Shown piece after piece: positions 7,865-62,687 of a DNA stretch of 64,000 nt (positions are counted from its first letter, which is position 1; every line of letters starts with the position of its first letter). The DNA comes from Nitrospirota bacterium. GTDB lineage: Bacteria > Nitrospirota > Nitrospiria > Nitrospirales > Nitrospiraceae. The notes under the pieces were generated by a model. It made no database searches, was not told the origin of the DNA, and was given only the letters and a program-made list of their open reading frames with translations. The position numbers and the translations under genes are program-made. The DNA lies in NCBI GenBank assembly GCA_963703955.1, contig CAVPGK010000016.1, forward strand, positions 96,001-160,000. The letters run 5' to 3'.

Positions 7865-8686
7865 ATGCAATTGAAGCGACGGATTGCGTTTATCGGCTCA
7901 GGCAACATGACCGAAGCGCTCGTGGCCGGGCTATTGAAAGCCGGGGTCTCCCTGTCTGGCGAGCTTTACGCCACCGATATCGTTCCCGAGCGCCACGTTC
8001 ATTTCAAGACCCGATATGGAATCAAGGTCGGTGGCCGAAACAGTGACGCCGCTGCCTGGGGTCATATCGTCATCCTGTCCGTCGAGCCTCAGATCCTCGA
8101 TAAGGTGCTGGCGGAAATTCGTCCGACCTTGCGGGCGGACAGCCTGGTCATCTCGGTGGCCGCCGGGTATCCCATCGCCAGAGCTACCGCCTACCTCACG
8201 TCCACCACACGAATTGTCCGCGCCATGCCGAACACCACCTCCACGGTGCTCGAAGGTGTCACTGCGTTGTCCTTCGGACCCGGTCTGTCGGAAGACGATA
8301 GACAGGCCGCACGGGTCATTTTTGAATCGGTTGGGAAGGTCGTCCTGGTGGAGGAACATTTAATGGATGTCGTCACGGGGCTGAGCGGGAGCGGACCGGC
8401 GTATGTGTATGTCCTGATCGAAGCCTTGGCGGATGGCGGCGTCAAGATGGGGCTGCCGCGTGCGACGGCGGAACTCCTCGCGGCGCAGACCGCCCTGGGC
8501 GCCGCACGCATGGTTCTCGAAAGCGGTGAGCACCCGGGCCGCCTGAAGGATCGCGTCGCCTCACCAGGGGGCACGACCATCTCGGGCATTCATCGGTTGG
8601 AGGAAGGGAGGCTCAGAGCCACTCTCATGGATGCCGTAGAAGCGGCCACGAAACGGTCACGGGAACTTGGCGACACCAAGCAGTAA
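7865..8686 (+). CDS. proC: pyrroline-5-carboxylate reductase
   Basis: FIGSGNM, RAMPNT, GLSGSGPAY, VASPGGTT. Confidence 0.97.
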   Translation: MQLKRRIAFIGSGNMTEALVAGLLKAGVSLSGELYATDIVPERHVHFKTRYGIKVGGRNSDAAAWGHIVILSVEPQILDKVLAEIRPTLRADSLVISVAAGYPIARATAYLTSTTRIVRAMPNTTSTVLEGVTALSFGPGLSEDDRQAARVIFESVGKVVLVEEHLMDVVTGLSGSGPAYVYVLIEALADGGVKMGLPRATAELLAAQTALGAARMVLESGEHPGRLKDRVASPGGTTISGIHRLEEGRLRATLMDAVEAATKRSRELGDTKQ

Positions 8687-8767
8687 AGAAGCCTTGCCCC
8701 GCCCGTGACGATCCAGTAGACTCCCTCGCCAGATTTGTGACGTTCCCTACCTATGGAGAGGTGACGC

Positions 8768-8962
8768 GTGGTCTATTGGGTCAAGGTCGTCTTTACCGAT
8801 AATCAGGAACTGTTGGTCAAGGATGCTATTCGACATACGATCAGCGACGACATGGAAGTGCTCGAAGTCGATACTGCCAAAGAAGTCACGATTATCCCCA
8901 TGAAGCAAATCAAGTACATCTCCTGCGATGCCACGGTTTTCGCAGGTAAAACAAAGAGTTAA
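8768..8962 (+). CDS. 64-aa beta-rich (possibly Sm/Hfq-like) protein, integration target
   Basis: GAGGTG RBS; 3' end duplicated with synonymous changes at 12581-12636. Confidence 0.85.
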   Translation: MVYWVKVVFTDNQELLVKDAIRHTISDDMEVLEVDTAKEVTIIPMKQIKYISCDATVFAGKTKS

Positions 8963-9384
8963 TTTTCAGATTCCTCGTTACTCCCGGTTTTACCCCCGGT
9001 TCGCTGCCCGATTTTTCCATCCAGCACCGCGTCCAGCCGATCCACCGCCTGCCTGTTCCCGCCGGGGATGAGATGCCCGTAGATGTCCACCGTCACCCTG
9101 ATCGAGGAGTGTCCGAATTGCTCGGCTATGTATTTCAGGTTTTCGCCATTGGCGATCAACCGTGATGCGAACGTGTGGCGACAGGCATGTAGCGTGAGCC
9201 GTTGGACCTGAGCCCGTCGGAGCAGGGGAAACCAGAGGCGATAGCGCAAGTAGGTCTCCGCTATGTAGTACGGCTGCTGTCGAGTGCCGCCGAGGTTACC
9301 GGGGAAGAGAGTCTCCGGTTGTGGTTCGCCGAGTGCGGCGGCTTCAAGGTCCTGTAGCGCGATCCATTCCTTCAAGGCTTCCAT
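8959..9384 (-). pseudogene. tyrosine integrase, C-terminal fragment
   Basis: LHACRHTFAS (H-x-x-R) and FGHSSIRVTVDIYGH motifs; N-terminal domains deleted. Confidence 0.9.
8978..9001 (+). repeat. tandem 12-bp arm-type sites TTACTCCCGGTT / TTACCCCCGGTT
   Basis: Same 12-mer recurs at 12439-12450 with a 9/12 copy at 12427-12438. Confidence 0.7.
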
Positions 9385-9553
9385 GACTTATGAGCCGGAA
9401 CGCGTCGTCCAGGCAGTGGTCGATTACTGGCGATCCCGTGCACTCCAGGCCGAAACAGACTTGGCGCGAGCGAATAGATGGATTAGTGATGCGACCTGCG
9501 ACATGGATGCCGAGTTGGAGAAGATGGCGCAGGAAATCGAGGGTGAATCATGA
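9383..9553 (+). CDS. phage-like small hypothetical protein, possibly 5'-truncated
   Basis: MTYEPERVVQAVVDYWRSRALQAE...; begins at the integrase truncation point. Confidence 0.45.
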   Translation: MTYEPERVVQAVVDYWRSRALQAETDLARANRWISDATCDMDAELEKMAQEIEGES

Positions 9554-9689
9554 GGGTGAAGCCGACACGACCGAGACCGAAGGGTAAAAAAGATGTCCGA
9601 TCATAACCTGCCTGTACCTATTGAACTCCCGCATCGGTTGTGAGCAAGCTGCTGTCCGTTAGCTCCATCCAGTTGGGCGTCAATTCGTC

Positions 9690-10151
9690 TCACGTCACTG
9701 AGTTCTTGACGAAGTATTGCTCCCACGCGTCCAGTGCTTCCGCCACGAAGTCTTCCGCGGCCACGCGCCGATAGGGAAGCTGAATCTTCAGCCGCCACCA
9801 AGGGCCTGCGCTCGCGGATAGGTGCGCTGGCATGACAGAGACGACCACTTCCGTAGTGGTTGGCGGATGCTTCACGTAGTCAGTGCGTTCCAGGTCGATG
9901 GTAATGTGTTGGCTGGCGTTTGCCAAATCTCGGCACACCCTCAGAGACTCGTGGAGCCCCAACGCATGTGTTACTGGCGTATTCAAATCGGGACGGTAGA
10001 CTTTGATCCAGTCCCACACGTGGTAAGTGGTCACTGCAAAGTTGAAAAGAGCTGAGCGCACGCTGGCCTCGTCCTTAGCGGACAGAGCCGACACCAGAGC
10101 AGCGCCATCTTGCCGAGCCTTGCCAAGTAACTCAGAGGGGGTTGAGTACAC
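9690..10151 (-). CDS. hypothetical HEPN-like protein
   Basis: Helical LFNFAVTTYHVWDW segment and CRDLANASQH motif. Confidence 0.6.
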   Translation of the reverse strand: MYSTPSELLGKARQDGAALVSALSAKDEASVRSALFNFAVTTYHVWDWIKVYRPDLNTPVTHALGLHESLRVCRDLANASQHITIDLERTDYVKHPPTTTEVVVSVMPAHLSASAGPWWRLKIQLPYRRVAAEDFVAEALDAWEQYFVKNSVT

Positions 10152-10350
10152 GGCCTTCAGCCACCTCCTCGCTTCGACATCAAAATAAACGTCAAATATC
10201 GAGTCATAGTAAACTACCCCACTATTGACTGATCGGCATAGCTCCCCTTCCCACCGCGATTACTCTCTCACTAAGTATTATCCGCCCTCAGGTTATGCTT
10301 TTGCCGCAATGAGGGTAATTCATATCCGTGCTCATAGTACAGCCCTCCTA

Positions 10351-10375
10351 TTTTGACAGGTTGTAATTGAGCGGG
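10351..10375 (+). promoter_or_regulatory. conserved upstream motif, copy 1
   Basis: TTTTGACAGGTtgtaaTTGAGCGGG; homolog at 11044-11067. Confidence 0.65.
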
Positions 10376-10431
10376 AGGCTCTGGGACGATGGACGAATGT
10401 CATCACCATCAACCAACGGGAAACTGGTGCC

Positions 10432-10701
10432 ATGCTGAATGATGCGCCCGTGACGATAGCAGTTTGGAATCAGTTGGTGTGTCTGGTGCGGGAGCCTAGC
10501 CAGCGGCGACCAGGCCAGCTTGCCTGGTGGGTCAGGCTCACGTTTGGCACGTTGGTCCCAAAACGGTTCGGGCCCTTTGGCTCGGAGGACGAAGCCATAC
10601 AGGCGTTTGAAGCCATCACCGCCGTTCTCGAAAGGACTCTGAAAGATGCAGCCTGTGATGCCGCGAACTCGGCGGGATATACGTTTGTCGAGGAGGTTTA
10701 G
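10432..10701 (+). CDS. small hypothetical phage-like protein (89 aa)
   Basis: ORF follows motif copy 1; GPFGSEDEA motif. Confidence 0.6.
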   Translation: MLNDAPVTIAVWNQLVCLVREPSQRRPGQLAWWVRLTFGTLVPKRFGPFGSEDEAIQAFEAITAVLERTLKDAACDAANSAGYTFVEEV

Positions 10702-10722
10702 GCCAACTACGGAGGTCGCACG

Positions 10723-10896
10723 TTGAAGGATCGCACCGTCAAGGTCTACGTCTCGCGAAGTGAAATAAGGAAAATTCAAACCCGAATACAGCAATTGAAA
10801 TTCAAGAACCGAAGCGCCTATCTGCGATGGCTCCTGGACGCCGAGGTCAAGCAATCCAAGTCAGGCTGCCCCGCGCCCGCATTTGGCTCAGGATGA
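10723..10896 (+). CDS. ribbon-helix-helix protein (57 aa)
   Basis: GGAGG RBS, TTG start; MKDRTVKVYVSRSEIRKIQTRIQQLKFKNRSAYLRWLLDAE. Confidence 0.7.
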   Translation: MKDRTVKVYVSRSEIRKIQTRIQQLKFKNRSAYLRWLLDAEVKQSKSGCPAPAFGSG

Positions 10897-11043
10897 TTGA
10901 TATCCTAGCCCACACTCCAGGGGATGATAGCGTCCGGCTCATCTTAGAGCCTTCCAGGCCCGCCTACACGGCGATATTTTTTGCAGGTACCTGCAATTGC
11001 TGAACGTCATCAGCCGGGCTCTGCCGAAAGCGGACGGCTCCTG

Positions 11044-11085
11044 TTTTGACAGGTGCTATTGAGCGGGTAGTTGTGATATGCTTAT
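11044..11085 (+). promoter_or_regulatory. conserved upstream motif, copy 2, with extended -10 TGaTATGCT
   Basis: TTTTGACAGGTgctaTTGAGCGGG then TG-n-TATGCT before a strong RBS. Confidence 0.65.
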
Positions 11086-11116
11086 AGGCTTGTGACAATT
11101 AACCGAGGAGACGAGG

Positions 11117-11353
11117 ATGAATACTGTGGCTCATCAGGACATGGAGTTATTGCAGGAAGCCTTTGCCATTATCGACAACAAGTCGGAGCAAGTACCGACG
11201 CGAGAGCATTTGGTCAACCTGCACGCGTACTACTTCCGCAAGCTGGTGAAGATTTACGAAGGCATGCGGAACATACAAATGATTGTCGATGGGCCGGTTT
11301 TGAATTTGACTGCTGAGAGCAACCACACACAAAAGGGGAAGGCGAAGTCATGA
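11117..11353 (+). CDS. small hypothetical protein (78 aa)
   Basis: AGGAG/GAGG RBS; follows motif copy 2. Confidence 0.65.
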   Translation: MNTVAHQDMELLQEAFAIIDNKSEQVPTREHLVNLHAYYFRKLVKIYEGMRNIQMIVDGPVLNLTAESNHTQKGKAKS

Positions 11354-11438
11354 ACAGCGTTTGCCGCCAAGACTGCCGTTCTCGACGGGGCGCTGTGGGA
11401 TGAACGGATGTCATCAACCAAAAACGAAGGAGGTCCAT

Positions 11439-11622
11439 GTGCGGTATGCATGGAAGGGTAACCCGAATGATGGCAGAATCCGGCTTTACTTCTCCCCGGA
11501 TGAAATAGCGGGCCGCCAAAGAACGGATGCGGCAACTTGGGATCGGAACGTTCAGCGACTATCTGCGATGGGTGCTGAAGGGCGAGGGTTGCAAAGAGGT
11601 CAGGCGGGAGGTCGATGAATGA
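11439..11622 (+). pseudogene. second RHH paralog with +1 frameshift near 11510
   Basis: AAGGAGG RBS; corrected IRLYFSPDEIAAAKERMRQLGIGTFSDYLRWVLKGE aligns to the 10723 protein; corrected stop overlaps the next ATG (ATGA). Confidence 0.7.
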
Positions 11623-11807
11623 GCGTATTCGAGATACTGAGCGGTGAACGAGAGAAGGTCCAGCGGCTACGGGATGCGCTGTCGGACCTCTTGGCCATGT
11701 GCCCGTCGTTGCCCAAACCGGGTACGGGTGCGGAACATATCTGGAATCAGCGAGTCGCCGCCGCTGAGGCCATCATGAAGTTGACGGAAACGAAGCACAA
11801 TGGTTGA
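11619..11807 (+). CDS. small hypothetical protein (62 aa)
   Basis: GGAGG RBS; coupled to the upstream RHH. Confidence 0.6.
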   Translation: MSVFEILSGEREKVQRLRDALSDLLAMCPSLPKPGTGAEHIWNQRVAAAEAIMKLTETKHNG

Positions 11808-12054
11808 GCAAACCAACCAGCCCACTCCGCGCACGCAGTTGCCACAGGATTAACGATCAGCATGCAGTCTGCTATCCCTCTCTTTTCAAATCCCCTTCCT
11901 TCCTTCGTGCGATCTCCCTCAACATTTTCCTTGACGGTTTCCTGATAGGACCGCTAGGTTTCTTCGGTAGAGGTAACCGCACCTTCAACTTCCGTTTCAT
12001 GGTTCGATGAATGCTCTAAACTCCGGCGCAAAGCAAAGATAGGGAGATTCTTAA

Positions 12055-12273
12055 ATGCATCAATGGCGCACTCTTAACAATCTTCAATTTCGCCTTGTTT
12101 CTTATGAAAGCCCTGGAACTGGCTGGATTCCTGCGGCTCAGATTCGGGAATCCACTGAAGGCATAGAAACCATAACACCGATTTGTGGCGACACTACTAA
12201 GCCTTTTGCTTCCGAGGAAGAGGCGAATAATGCTGCATTGGCAATGGCGATAGAATGGATGAACTCAAACTGA
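12055..12273 (+). CDS. small acidic hypothetical protein (72 aa)
   Basis: GGGAG RBS; GWIPAAQI...PFASEEEANNAA. Confidence 0.6.
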   Translation: MHQWRTLNNLQFRLVSYESPGTGWIPAAQIRESTEGIETITPICGDTTKPFASEEEANNAALAMAIEWMNSN

Positions 12274-12580
12274 CCACCTACACTTCATGCGACTGCTCTT
12301 GAAGGCGGAGGATCAATCCAAACCGCCTGTCCGGCACACACGGTTAGGATTAACGATCCGGGGATGAGGTGGACGTTGCTTTCTGACGGTCATCCAAGGA
12401 ACCACGTATGAGCATACGTAATTACGTCAGTCCCAGTTTTACTCCCGGTTCAGAGTCGTTTTTAATCACAATTAGGACCCTGTGAGACAGTCTAGGATTG
12501 AGTGAGAATAAGGCTCAAATGTTCTGATAAACCTCTCACTTATAATCTCTCTTAATCCCACTCAATCCCCATGCCTGTCA

Positions 12581-12636
12581 AAATCAAGTACATCTCTTGC
12601 GACGCAACGGTCTTTGCTTCTAAACCAAAGGCGTAG
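12581..12636 (+). pseudogene. displaced original 3' end of the 64-aa gene (right junction)
   Basis: Encodes IKYISCDATVFASKPKA* versus IKYISCDATVFAGKTKS* in the intact gene. Confidence 0.9.
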
Positions 12637-12759
12637 GTTGCGGCCACTTCATTATTACGGTTCAAGTCACGGCTGGAGCCGCGGGCGACGCGCTCACGCA
12701 ATCAGGACTCTCGCCGCAACTGTAACGTGGTCGGCTTGAAAAACTAAGGTCGAGTCTGC

Positions 12760-14109
12760 CTAATCAGTGGACGTGTGAGCGGCGGAGGGATCGAGGGGCA
12801 GGCGAAGATAAAATGTCGTGCCCACACCTTCTTTGCTTTCGACGGTAATCCGGCCTTTATGCGCATCCACGACATCCTTGATAATCTTCATCCCCAATCC
12901 CGTCCCGCCGGCTTTGCGGCTGAAGATACGAGACGTAAACAGACTGTCGCGGACCTCAGGGGGCATCCCTCGTCCGGTGTCGGCGACCGACACGATGACA
13001 TCGCCGGTGGTGCCGTCCACATGCCCTCGAACGGTCACCATGCCGCCTGCAGGCACCTCAGGGATCGCATTGTTCACCAGATTATAGAAGGCATTATAGA
13101 GACGGCGTTCGTCGGCCTGAATAATCGGCAACTGATCCAAATCGTCGCTCAGGAGTCTGACTTTCTTTTCTTCCGCGATCATGCGAAGGATTTTTAATAC
13201 GTTCACAACCACATCAGCTATCCGGCAGGATGTGAACTGAGGCGGCGTGCTGAGACCTTTGACACAATCGGCAATTTCCTTCACACGATCGTTGATGCGT
13301 TGCGCGCCATCACTCACCATCGAAATTACGTCATCGCACAAGGCTTGACTCTCCTGTGCCTTCCCCGCATTGGTCTTCGCGACCTCGACGACGAGATCGT
13401 CAATCTCTGACTTCAGCACTCCGGCGCCGCAGGTAATCGGCATCAACAAGTTCTTGACATCGTGACTGATATCTCCCAGGACACGAGCCACCTCCGCCAG
13501 CTTGACATCCTCTTGCAAGCGCGCATGCTCGATCACCGTTGCCGTGAGCGCGGAAATAATAGACAGGATCGAGAGGTCATCACGGTTGAGCTGTCCTTCT
13601 CGTTTGTTCATCACTTCAATGACCCCGATGGCCTCTCCTTCCCATTGCTTCAACGGCAGCACAATCATGTCTTGCGTCTGATAACCCGTCGCTGAGTCAA
13701 TACTGGGACAATGACGCCCATCCTCTTTGGCGTTTGCAACCACCTCCGGTTCACCCGACTTAAAGACAGAGCCGGCGAGGCCATGATGCCAGGGAATCCC
13801 AGTCCCACGAGCGACAGGCTTTTCCCCGATCGAGTGGCGAAACACCAGTTGCTTTGATTCTCGATCCGCCAGGAGCACAGACCCTGTCTCTGCATTGACG
13901 AGTTCCAACGCAGTGCGTAGGGCGTGCTCAATCAGCTCGTCGACATCGGTATATTGAAAAAGGGCTTGGCAGATATGGCGAACCGCCTCAAGCTCGCGCT
14001 CGCGGGCGCGAAGCCGTCGATCTTGCTGTCTTCGATAGGCGGACCGCCGTTCAGAAGAAGGTGACAAGGGAAAGGGCGCCTGTGTATCGGAAGGCATTAT
14101 CATTACCAA
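12760..14109 (-). CDS. GAF sensor histidine kinase
   Basis: GAF domain; H-box ISHDVKN; NLVNNA, DTGRG, GTGLG boxes. Confidence 0.92.
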   Translation of the reverse strand: MVMIMPSDTQAPFPLSPSSERRSAYRRQQDRRLRARERELEAVRHICQALFQYTDVDELIEHALRTALELVNAETGSVLLADRESKQLVFRHSIGEKPVARGTGIPWHHGLAGSVFKSGEPEVVANAKEDGRHCPSIDSATGYQTQDMIVLPLKQWEGEAIGVIEVMNKREGQLNRDDLSILSIISALTATVIEHARLQEDVKLAEVARVLGDISHDVKNLLMPITCGAGVLKSEIDDLVVEVAKTNAGKAQESQALCDDVISMVSDGAQRINDRVKEIADCVKGLSTPPQFTSCRIADVVVNVLKILRMIAEEKKVRLLSDDLDQLPIIQADERRLYNAFYNLVNNAIPEVPAGGMVTVRGHVDGTTGDVIVSVADTGRGMPPEVRDSLFTSRIFSRKAGGTGLGMKIIKDVVDAHKGRITVESKEGVGTTFYLRLPLDPSAAHTSTD

Positions 14110-14343
14110 TACGGTATTGGGTGGCTGAAAGGTCTTAGCACCAAGAGTTGGACCGTGACGTAATACTAGTATTTCTTACTGACGAAGGATGGGCAGAAAG
14201 CCTCATCTAGAACCTAAATCAGAAGCTCGACTGTACGCTGTTAACCCTCGGGTTTTCAAGTGGAGACCCCGCCCGTCAGCCTTGACTCTACAAACGGGTA
14301 ATGGCAAGTTTTTTGTCCCAGGGCCTCGTAGCGGAAAAGAGTC

Positions 14344-14706
14344 ATGAAAACGATTCTTGTGATTGACGACGATCGCGACGTGAGAGCCATCATCCGAATG
14401 CGGTTGGAGGCCGCGCGATATCGCATTCTTGAAGCCTCCGATGGCAACGAGGCGTTGGAACTCGCCCAAAATGAGCATCCCGACCTTCTACTCTTGGACA
14501 TGACGATGCCCGGCATAAGCGGCATTGAAGTTGTTGAACGTTTGCGGGGGGATCCGGCAACGGCGCATATTCCCGTGATGTTGATCAGCGGCGCGGAAGA
14601 GATTGCCGATAAACAATTTGCCCTGACCATCAAGGCAAATGATTATCTGGTCAAACCGATCGATGGGAAAGAACTCTTGGAGAGAGTTCGGAGTATTCTG
14701 GGGTAG
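14344..14706 (+). CDS. single-domain response regulator
   Basis: ILVIDDD, LLLDMTMP, YLVKP. Confidence 0.93.
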   Translation: MKTILVIDDDRDVRAIIRMRLEAARYRILEASDGNEALELAQNEHPDLLLLDMTMPGISGIEVVERLRGDPATAHIPVMLISGAEEIADKQFALTIKANDYLVKPIDGKELLERVRSILG

Positions 14707-14710
14707 GGAG

Positions 14711-16366
14711 TTACCGATCGCTTGCTGAAACTCGCTTGGCGAGCCGATGAGCGAGGCGCAACATGGCCGGCGATCGATCCGCAGGATTTAACAGCACATT
14801 CAAAAGATGCAGGCGGTCTTTGTCGGCGAGCGCCGCTTTGAAGGCCTGCACCAATTCACCCTGGGTCGCAACACGATACCCGACGCCCCCTCCGATCAGC
14901 TCACAGGTCTTTTCGTATCGCCATTCATGCACATCGTTAAACGGCCCGTCGAGGATCTCGCGCTCGGTCGAGTATCCCCGGTTGTTGAGAACCACGACGA
15001 TCGGCGCCTGACCGTAGCGGACGCAGGTCGCCAGTTCCGAACCTGTCATCTGAAAGGCGCCGTCGCCCACCAAGACGATCGGCCGCAAGGATGGATCGGC
15101 GAATCCCGCACCTACCGCAGCCGGCACAGCAAAGCCCATAGACGTGTAATAGGCCGGCGACATGAATTCGCTGCGGCTGTGGACACGCAGGTCGGCCCCC
15201 GCAAACAATGACTCCCCGATGTCGGCAATGACCAGCATCTTCTCATCCAACAGCGCTTCCAGATGGCCGAAGAGCCCGCGCAACGTCATGGCTTGGTCCG
15301 GAACGGATGGCTCGACGGAACCGGTGTCGAACGTCGGCAGAGGGCGCGAGGGAAAGGACGGCAGCGGCGCAACCACGAGGGCGCGGATAAAATCTTCAAA
15401 GAACACGCGTTCATACCGGTGGTGTTTGATGGTGATCGCGTCGGCCGTTGCATGGATGGTTCGGCCTGCTCTCATGAGAGGCGAATTCGCATCGAGGTCT
15501 TCGATGTCCGTGAGAATCGAGCCGAGCATGACGAGGCAATCGGCCTCATTCACGAACTTTTGGACTTCGTCACGCCCAACGAGCCCGCCGTAGACCCCAA
15601 CAAAGAGCGGATGGTTTTCGCTGATGACGGATTTTCCCAGGAGGGTCGAGGTCACAGGAATATTCATACGCTCCGCGAGTCGGGACACCTCATCCTGGAG
15701 GTGGAAACGATGCACCTCTGCGCCGACCAACAGGACCGGGTTTTCCACCGCAGCGAGCATGTCTCGCACCTCGGCGACCGCTTCCGCCAACGCGGCCGGA
15801 TCACTGTGCGCATCCGGCTCGGTGTGAGATCTCTGTGAGGATTCGATCGGAGCATGGACGAGATCGCGCGGGATCTCCAAATAGATGGGGCGCTTGTACC
15901 GCACCAGCGCGGCCAGCGCACGGTCGATGGTTCGCTCCGCCGTCAGCGGATCGTCCAGCACGGCGGAGACGACGGTGACCTTTTCGAACACTTCTTTTTG
16001 AGTCGTAAAATCCCGCACCATGTGGTGCAGCAGCGGATTACGAACTCGCTCGGACAGCCCGGGCGATCCTGAGAGGAGGACCACCGGGGACCGCTCCGCA
16101 TAGGCGCATGCGATGGCATTGACGACATTGAGTCCCCCCACGCAATAGGTCACGCACACGGCGCCGATTCCCTTGAGCCGCGCGTAGGCGTCCGCCGCAA
16201 ACCCTGCGCAGTCCTCTCGCGTGGTTCCGATGAGCCGGATGGGAGATTGGTCGATCAATTCGTACAAACTCAGGACATAATCACCTGGGATGCCGAAAAT
16301 ATGCCGGAGCCCTAAGCGGTGCAATCGATCGAGCAGAATTGAGCCGATGGTATTCGTCGAGGGCAT
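14711..16366 (-). CDS. TPP-dependent alpha-keto acid (indolepyruvate-type) decarboxylase
   Basis: FGIPGDY, GFAADAYAR, LLHH, GDGAFQMT...NNRGY. Confidence 0.92.
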   Translation of the reverse strand: MPSTNTIGSILLDRLHRLGLRHIFGIPGDYVLSLYELIDQSPIRLIGTTREDCAGFAADAYARLKGIGAVCVTYCVGGLNVVNAIACAYAERSPVVLLSGSPGLSERVRNPLLHHMVRDFTTQKEVFEKVTVVSAVLDDPLTAERTIDRALAALVRYKRPIYLEIPRDLVHAPIESSQRSHTEPDAHSDPAALAEAVAEVRDMLAAVENPVLLVGAEVHRFHLQDEVSRLAERMNIPVTSTLLGKSVISENHPLFVGVYGGLVGRDEVQKFVNEADCLVMLGSILTDIEDLDANSPLMRAGRTIHATADAITIKHHRYERVFFEDFIRALVVAPLPSFPSRPLPTFDTGSVEPSVPDQAMTLRGLFGHLEALLDEKMLVIADIGESLFAGADLRVHSRSEFMSPAYYTSMGFAVPAAVGAGFADPSLRPIVLVGDGAFQMTGSELATCVRYGQAPIVVVLNNRGYSTEREILDGPFNDVHEWRYEKTCELIGGGVGYRVATQGELVQAFKAALADKDRLHLLNVLLNPADRSPAMLRLAHRLAKRVSASDR

Positions 16367-62540: not shown

Positions 62541-62687
62541 TCGGTTCGCGCTGGGAAATGGAAGGGCATGATTCCGTGTCTCATGCGGCTCCTCACCCCC
62601 CTTGACAGTGGCAACCATGACCGGACGGGATATTCGTCGAAACCGTGACAGGTACCGGGACTGGTTTCCTGGGAGGAGGGTACTCGT

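Follow-up and report, generated by a model that had tools for sequence, protein, structure and literature searches.

Remnant of an integrative element at a probable gene-restoring integration site in a 64-codon gene of Nitrospiraceae

We analysed a window of 64,000 nucleotides (contig CAVPGK010000016.1, positions 96,001 to 160,000) from the genome of a Nitrospirota bacterium of the family Nitrospiraceae (GCA_963703955.1, here G000; a 3.3-Mb draft of 28 contigs, 82% complete). Positions 8918-12591 of this window are very probably the remnant of an integrative element, which entered an attachment site (attB) of the gene-restoring type in an unnamed gene for a 64-residue protein, belongs with a distinct clade of tyrosine integrases and probably lies against an older, stacked insertion. 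A preliminary description of this DNA had placed a 16-bp core at both ends of the element, and the block AAATCAAGTACATCTC was indeed recovered at both (attL and attR, Table 1) and at no other place in G000; the repeat around it stretches to 50 nucleotides at 82% identity, with a spacing of 3674 between the copies. The left copy forms the end of the 64-codon open reading frame (ORF) with the tail ISCDATVFAGKTKS, whereas the right copy reads ISCDATVFASKPKA and the gene body is absent upstream of it; both tails are 14 codons long, as had been stated.

In order to place the site among related bacteria, loci from 105 genomes of the family were inspected, a choice biased toward genomes with double pattern matches and in this sense an enriched sample (G and L numbers denote the genomes and loci compared). 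A full gene together with a tail-only copy was present in 17 of the 105 genomes, on a single contig and 1.1-12.2 kb apart in 12 of them; G025, G089, G111, G368 and G391 were excluded from these pair counts because both of their copies carry the gene body. A related integrase ending at the 3' end of the gene was found in 18 genomes, and an integrase, a displaced tail or both occupied the site in 24 genomes from 8 genera. Across the family, a degenerate tail pattern matched 183 of 371 genomes (21 of them twice), as against 3 matches of a reversed control pattern; since the pattern overlooks the majority of genomes in two large genera, occupancy there was judged through the integrase search alone. 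The preliminary description had proposed collecting integrase homologs and looking for the core beside them, and this search bore it out: among 31 metagenome loci with best segments of at least 50% identity, 5 stop at the match itself, and of the 26 that reach further 24 abut the gene or its tail, although many of these loci are near-copies of one another and therefore not independent. Fourteen residues follow the KY of the site in 18 of 19 integrase-adjacent tails, compared with 3 of 17 tails that adjoin the decarboxylase gene described below. These comparisons support the proposal that attB lies in a small hypothetical gene and that the attP of a tyrosine-integrase element brings a replacement C-terminus.

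Comparison of the 17 pairs also located the crossover. In 11 pairs the stretch shared by the two copies opens exactly one base ahead of the Lys codon; in 4 it opens earlier, and in 2 the copies disagree at that base. The first mismatch on the right-hand side is met as early as position +8 (+5 in one integrase-less relic). We infer that strand exchange is restricted to some 7-9 bp, for which YAARTAC (8911-8917) is the simplest choice; its first base is T on both sides in 8 pairs and C on both sides in 7. The 16-bp core thus stands as a block of identity, but the crossover itself would be narrower, at about 7 bp inside this block. The left junction is identical (8622-8954) in a 333-nt contig of run X1, which may be the source sample; the right junction was spanned by none of the contig pieces listed for the runs.

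The gene that abuts the left copy is the C-terminal part of a tyrosine integrase, 63% identical to the full-length integrase of locus L049. Residues 1-259 are gone, and with them the arm-binding domain, the core-binding domain and the first catalytic Arg/Lys, and the upstream frames are closed; no second integrase of the clade was found in G000 (82% complete). The element in the window is a non-autonomous remnant that is unable to make its own integrase, a truncation on which the preliminary description was silent. Full-length members of the clade (382-400 residues, open frame) were found in G023, G099, G100, G112, G113, G123 and G124. In a protein search, 43 clusters at 50-98% identity were followed by a fall to about 45% and below, and the 21 next-best integrase loci of the family had the target motif in no case and lay beside tRNA-His, -Arg or -Thr in 17. 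A tree set 17 integrases from the site apart from 23 tRNA-type or next-best relatives at 100/99, its alignment being projected on one query, with seven rows less than half filled and no reliable root. The clade was not found in two sister families (115 genomes, best score 301 bits; 21 genomes, no score), members of the clade scoring 595-687 bits and tRNA-adjacent relatives 289-330 bits on the same profile; the five best loci of the larger sister family lie beside tRNA-His or -Met. In a viral collection the tail pattern had no match, one integrase alignment (A1) found no relative, and the other (A2) found 33 loci with best segments 23-43% identical, none of them of the clade.

Table 1. Positions of the features at and around the element (window coordinates)
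Feature	Position	Strand	Remark
proC (pyrroline-5-carboxylate reductase), host gene upstream of target	7865..8686	+	Pfam P5CR_dimer, E 4.8e-44
Target gene, 64 residues, unnamed, predicted five-strand Sm/Hfq-like fold	8768..8962	+	codons 51-64 element-derived
Left 16-bp identity block (attL), AAATCAAGTACATCTC	8907..8922	+	repeat search
Putative 7-bp strand-exchange region CAAGTAC, codons 48-50, left copy	8911..8917	+	paired-copy comparison
Replacement tail ISCDATVFAGKTKS with stop, element-supplied	8918..8962	+	its stop overlaps the integrase stop
Tyrosine integrase remnant, 141 residues, C-terminal	8959..9384	-	PF00589, E 2.1e-11; equals residues 260-397 of a 398-residue relative
Doubled arm-type motif by attL (two 9-mers, 12-bp period)	8981..9001	+	inside integrase 3' end; score 16.4
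Cargo ORF, 153 residues, function unassigned, single copy in G000	9690..10151	-	unnamed Atlas clusters at 0.97
Small ORF, 89 residues	10432..10701	+	distantly related ORFs in the integrase islands L031 and L088
Putative ribbon-helix-helix-like ORF, 57 residues	10723..10896	+	NikA-like, E 0.009, below cut-off
Three ORFs: 78 residues (11117-11353), 62 residues (11619-11807), 72 residues (12055-12273)	11117..12273	+	64-84% identical copies elsewhere in G000
Doubled arm-type motif, attR side	12430..12450	+	start lies 156 bp ahead of the core's AAG codon; score 19.3
Right 16-bp identity block (attR), AAATCAAGTACATCTC	12581..12596	+	putative overlap 12585-12591
Displaced tail ISCDATVFASKPKA with stop, probably from older element of the clade	12592..12636	+	12583-12672 match to L064
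Third doubled arm-type motif, outside element, 17 bp past displaced stop	12654..12674	+	score 20.7
GAF histidine kinase	12760..14109	-	Pfam; probably older acquired DNA at the site
Response regulator-like ORF	14344..14706	+	named from sequence only; probably older acquired DNA
Indolepyruvate-decarboxylase-like gene	14711..16366	-	TIGR03394, E 5.7e-117, under cut-off

Three doubled 9-bp motifs stand at the locus (Table 1) and are probably arm-binding sites of the integrase; they were scored with a matrix trained on 17 other genomes, with the window left out. The scores of the pair by attL and of the third pair were each attained by 2 of 20,000 random windows. Of 15 tail-only copies that could be tested, 13 have a co-oriented pair on the attR side, 138-181 bp ahead of the core, while control regions (n=105) gave a best score of 6.2. 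Further high-scoring doubled arm-like motifs were seen at window positions 62641-62661 (minus strand) and in G000 at C16:180261 and C12:114787, the one on C16 beside a tRNA-Thr gene. In addition, G084, G117, G146 and G134 (loci L135, L111, L153 and L145) have a single copy of the gene, no nearby integrase and a relic arm pair behind the stop codon (scores 4-16), and element-derived tails may now be the resident gene end in these genomes.

The third arm pair bears on what stood at the site before the present element. The preliminary description had taken the right-hand tail, ending ASKPKA, for the tail of the gene before insertion, which is likely for the allele present just before this event; that it is the native host tail is made unlikely by the arm pair and by the likeness to locus L064, whose element-side tail matches 12583-12672 with 79% identity over 92 nucleotides (E 6e-15). 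Because a pair of the element type stands behind this tail, at a distance typical of elements, the tail probably comes from an older element. Among the 17 tail-only copies such a pair follows the displaced tail in just one other, in G112, where an integrase relic comes after it; stacking was seen elsewhere in G112 (second arm pair and integrase relic) and also in L163, which has three copies in a row. The 17 copies that adjoin the decarboxylase gene, by comparison, score 2.8 at best. Overall, the sequence comparisons suggest that the locus probably holds one insertion stacked on another, and that just the tail and arm of the older one survive.

The competing account, which was that of the preliminary description, is a single insertion in which ASKPKA is the native tail and the kinase region the native neighbour. 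The geometry of attL and attR is in keeping with it, as ASKPKA would have been resident immediately before the present insertion, and similar tails end the gene in single-copy genomes (ASKPKG in G086, ANKPRA in G008). However, we regard it as unlikely in view of the arm pair and the 92-nt similarity, and the right flank points the same way. The kinase matched none of the loci from the other 104 genomes, and the GC content of 12592-14710 is island-like (0.542, compared with 0.536 for the element and 0.58-0.61 for the flanks). The decarboxylase gene is the convergent neighbour of the target in several genera and adjoins 17 gene or tail copies in relatives; in G006, which has the closest decarboxylase (85%), the target ends in AAKK directly against it. 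An empty site with ASKPKA joined to the kinase, as had been expected, was found in no relative; in 14 genomes, all of other species, the target is uninterrupted, one complete copy adjoining the decarboxylase gene directly.

Within SCDATVFA the left and right copies differ at six positions, and all six differences are synonymous, exactly as had been listed earlier. When six random changes were placed in the 24 nucleotides, the share of 200,000 trials in which every change was synonymous was 3.5e-5 under a uniform scheme and 9e-5 under a transition-biased one, and since the chance of this pattern is below 1e-4, selection has acted on both copies as protein; a damaged CDATVF motif in 3 of the 17 tail-only copies fits release from selection. 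The term 'recoded', which had been applied to the replacement C-terminus, overstates these data, as the number of differences is ordinary: over CDATVF the window pair differs at 4 positions, and 4 or more differences were counted in 2026 of 5352 pairs (38%) of 104 resident copies. It could still be supposed that the element was deliberately recoded, either to keep its two ends from recombining by homology or to prevent a second integration, given that 6 of 8 third positions differ in the window pair, close to saturation. This is very improbable, for attL/attR distances are no larger than those between unrelated resident genes, the paired ends of three of the 17 genomes (G023, G099 and G123) have no CDATVF difference at all, and stacked insertions exist. 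As judged from these counts, the 'recoding' is ordinary divergence under purifying selection.

Taken together, the results fit a mechanism in which a clade of tyrosine integrases recombines at a site of roughly 7 bp in codons 48-50 of the 64-residue Nitrospiraceae gene. The attP would hold the final 14 codons of the gene and its stop codon, so that integration would leave a full-length protein while the previous tail moves to the far end of the element, and selection for a working host protein would preserve the amino acids as third positions drift. In the window, a deletion after integration has very probably taken two thirds of the integrase gene, leaving a copy that would stay in place as long as no integrase acts in trans; the displaced tail would derive from an older member of the clade that has since lost its other end, the original native tail being gone as well. 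Intact elements would be expected to leave the site as circles.

Several observations weigh against this mechanism. In 3 of the 17 pairs there is a mismatch within the 7-mer (at the first overlap base in G126 and G108, inside it in G032), and of the 26 informative metagenome loci two, L175 and L188, are without the target. The 18 integrase-bearing genomes are not independent, as 11 of them belong to one genus; in a free tree, two long outgroup rows fall within the site group, which then does not form one side of a branch, and the approximately unbiased test did no more than fail to reject its monophyly (p-AU 0.24). No excision or empty-site joint was seen in the assembled, low-depth contigs of four runs (X1, X2, X4 and X6), no attP junction among the 52 loci scanned, and no empty site of the same species was found, an exact 27-nt host-side pattern having no match in metagenome contigs; nor was a third core or a far-end arm of the supposed older element found. 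In favour of a segmental duplication or assembly artefact without site-specific recombination are the draft state of the genome, with no listed run contig over the right junction, and the five genomes in which two pattern matches are two gene-body copies. Yet the same breakpoint, arms and integrase recur in 8 genera, single-contig genomes included, and X1 reads the left junction identically, which makes an artefact or duplication extremely improbable. A functional tail exchange, by which the element modulates what the host protein does, or uses excision as a switch for it (regulated gene integrity), is quite unlikely. For it speak the common 14-residue form of the element tails, the retention of an element-type tail and relic arm pair without integrase in single-copy G084, G117 and G146, and the fact that the exchanged part covers residues 48-56 of a predicted subunit interface; but residues 51-58 are nearly constant, the tails differ in their last five residues, where hosts show free variation and the model has low confidence, and the fixed tail length follows from the overlap with the 3' end of the integrase gene.

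The target gene itself is present in 51 of 61 related genomes and in 3 of 4 families, nearly always as a single copy, and proC lies upstream of it in most of 30 loci compared. Homologues of its product carry the annotation 'hypothetical protein' in Nitrospira and Nitrospiraceae; neither Pfam nor NCBIfam has a family that passes the cut-off, and a PDB sequence search with a further alignment (A3) gave no match. The predicted structure is a small five-strand sheet with a predicted local distance difference test score (pLDDT) of 92. Its fold matches, Hfq, DUF903 and Rv3208A, lie at the weak level of Z 5.3-5.6, below the tool's mark of Z 8, with mostly Sm-type proteins in the top rows (best match Z 5.6, root-mean-square deviation (rmsd) 2.9, 52 residues aligned; Hfq Z 5.5, rmsd 2.1-2.8), and Foldseek values are likewise weak (E 0.009-0.05). 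The protein has no match to PF17209 (Pfam Hfq), and its model opens with a strand rather than the N-terminal helix of Hfq. In a four-copy model, residues 39-44 pair with residues 48-56 of the neighbouring subunit (strand 4 with strand 5); the subunit-pairing score was 0.49, compared with 0.00 for the best of 3 controls, and the runs agreed on at least 91% of contacts with pLDDT of at least 80. The mark for this score is passed by 20 of 30 solved pairs and 1 of 23 single chains, and the target may pass it through likeness to solved Sm rings. The models are compatible with an Sm/LSm-like fold, and the insertion point (codons 48-50) falls at the start of the last predicted strand, the one that would pair subunits. 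A bolder reading, which we consider unlikely, is that the protein is an unrecognised, probably essential, ring-forming Sm-like stand-in for Hfq, that the integrase clade switched to it from tRNA genes, and that mobile elements have come to determine the tail of a host regulator and could adjust it. None of the 61 genomes searched, single-contig ones included, had a match to Pfam Hfq, while 5 of 14 controls were positive. If this reading were true, repeated insertion and decay would have swapped the native C-terminus for element-derived tails in whole lineages.

Inside the element, library scans of the window ORFs found no replication, packaging, capsid or transfer gene, and no relaxase or conjugation gene was found in these ORFs or in 55 scanned ORFs from related loci. 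The 153-residue cargo ORF has no Pfam, NCBIfam, PHROG or PADLOC match, and a frameshifted second copy of the 57-residue ORF lies at about 11450-11622. Eight other loci of G000 share DNA with the element and cover 1016 of 3624 bases. The 62- and 72-residue ORFs (window 11603-11808 and 12042-12278) recur in G000 at 64-84% identity with sharp common ends and varying neighbours (C6:173.9-175.2k, C10:282.9-283.8k, C11:163.1-163.8k, C11:274.8-275.3k, C13:215.4k and C19:5.4-6.2k), some copies near tRNA genes and with further arrangements in run contigs; this unit is possibly a lineage-specific mobile cassette. A motif TTTGACAGG...ATTGAGYGGG occurs three times, at 10350-10374 and 11043-11066 (plus strand) and at 12557-12582 (minus strand), the third copy touching the right core and lying within an 18-bp inverted repeat (12495-12512 / 12551-12568). 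It is a possible promoter or repressor site, but TTTGACA...ATTGAGYGGG shows no clear genome-wide enrichment, with 13 matches where five shuffles gave 5-10, and we assign it no function.

Elsewhere, the site is occupied by a satellite-like island (L031), by islands of 5-8 kb that combine an integrase with varying cargo, and by integrase-less relics, and one other site element carries an excisionase-like helix-turn-helix gene. The island in G023 (L031:3000-15200) is a 12.2-kb element with primase-like genes, a small terminase, a major capsid gene and an IS21-type insertion, and is a candidate capsid-forming satellite in Nitrospiraceae. Candidate anti-phage matches, in cargo or neighbouring genes, were PDC-S46 (E 3e-255) and a protein with a RelA/SpoT domain, together with a type IV restriction enzyme of the GmrSD kind that lies immediately beyond attR (L048:4228-6399, L047:4157-7213 and L046:8962-10842). 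Two different elements of the clade, L270 and L271, with att repeats of the Nitrospira type, were found in a Nitrosomonas bin and may be misbinned; they were rejected as circles, having no terminal repeat and being bounded by att repeats. L188 holds a clade-like integrase fragment (59%) and an arm-like pair with the target gene absent behind them, a possible second target. L065 (G368) has two full target copies with common upstream sequence, 12.5 kb apart around metal-efflux-like genes, which is another type of duplication.

Gene-restoring integration is known for e14, phage 21 and lambdoid icd prophages at icd, and SXT/R391 supplies a replacement for the protein gene prfC. The Nitrospiraceae element shares the replacement logic and, as a putative feature, the short crossover of integration at icd, tRNA and tmRNA genes, and differs from the icd type in its unnamed 64-residue Sm-like target, in a 14-codon replacement that overlaps the 3' end of the integrase gene and in its hosts; compared with SXT/R391, both lie in a protein gene, but SXT replaces the 5' end and is large and conjugative. 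Its nearest relatives are the integrases beside tRNA-His, -Arg and -Thr genes of Nitrospirota (35-44% identical), which have the same orientation, 3' end to target; here the target is a protein gene, and the unrooted tree is compatible with a switch in either direction. In PMC10111431 and PMC4383910, an attP replacement piece keeps the target working and about 7 bp of strand exchange lie in a longer identity block, and the latter also describes tandem arrays at a single target. The HE type of phage-inducible chromosomal island (PICI) has an attP with two co-oriented doubled motifs placed asymmetrically, 81 and 132 bp from the crossover, according to PMC10111431. The HE-PICI and fis-PICI of Enterobacteriaceae thus have the same arm layout as the Nitrospiraceae pairs, which start about 70 and 140-180 bp away, and the G023 element resembles capsid-forming PICIs in its primase-like pair, small terminase and capsid gene; motif sequence, target and phylum differ, and the window element is without a replication or packaging gene. 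Streptococcal integrative and conjugative elements, as given in PMC4701971, enter the 3' ends of rplL, rpsI, rpmG, guaA and lysS with tyrosine integrases and 12-54-bp repeats that contain this end of the conserved protein gene, whereas the repeat of the Nitrospiraceae element is degenerate, not exact, and no conjugation genes were found in it. Protein-coding sequence holds 43.4% of 1.76 million mapped islands (PMC12424338). Literature searches on Nitrospira integration sites and on Hfq/Sm-like proteins found no description of the site, the TIGER/Islander listings, which may include such islands, being outside their scope; the string 'Nitrospir' does not occur in the main text of PMC13626063, PMC10111431 or PMC4383910, and it stands in one benchmark row of the supplement of PMC12884075. 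The mechanism is textbook, while the attB site and the integrase group appear to be new.

These data describe a recurrent hotspot, with defined boundaries, arms and integrase group, in bacteria of the nitrite-oxidising or comammox type that tRNA-based island finders overlook. The elements at the site bring variable cargo, including matches to candidate anti-phage genes. To our knowledge, there are few genetic tools for the nitrite-oxidising Nitrospira group, for which intact members of the clade are a candidate gene-preserving integration system. Since the elements restore residues 51-58 almost unaltered, the host would seem to need the unnamed 64-residue protein, which is thereby marked as important and worth characterising.

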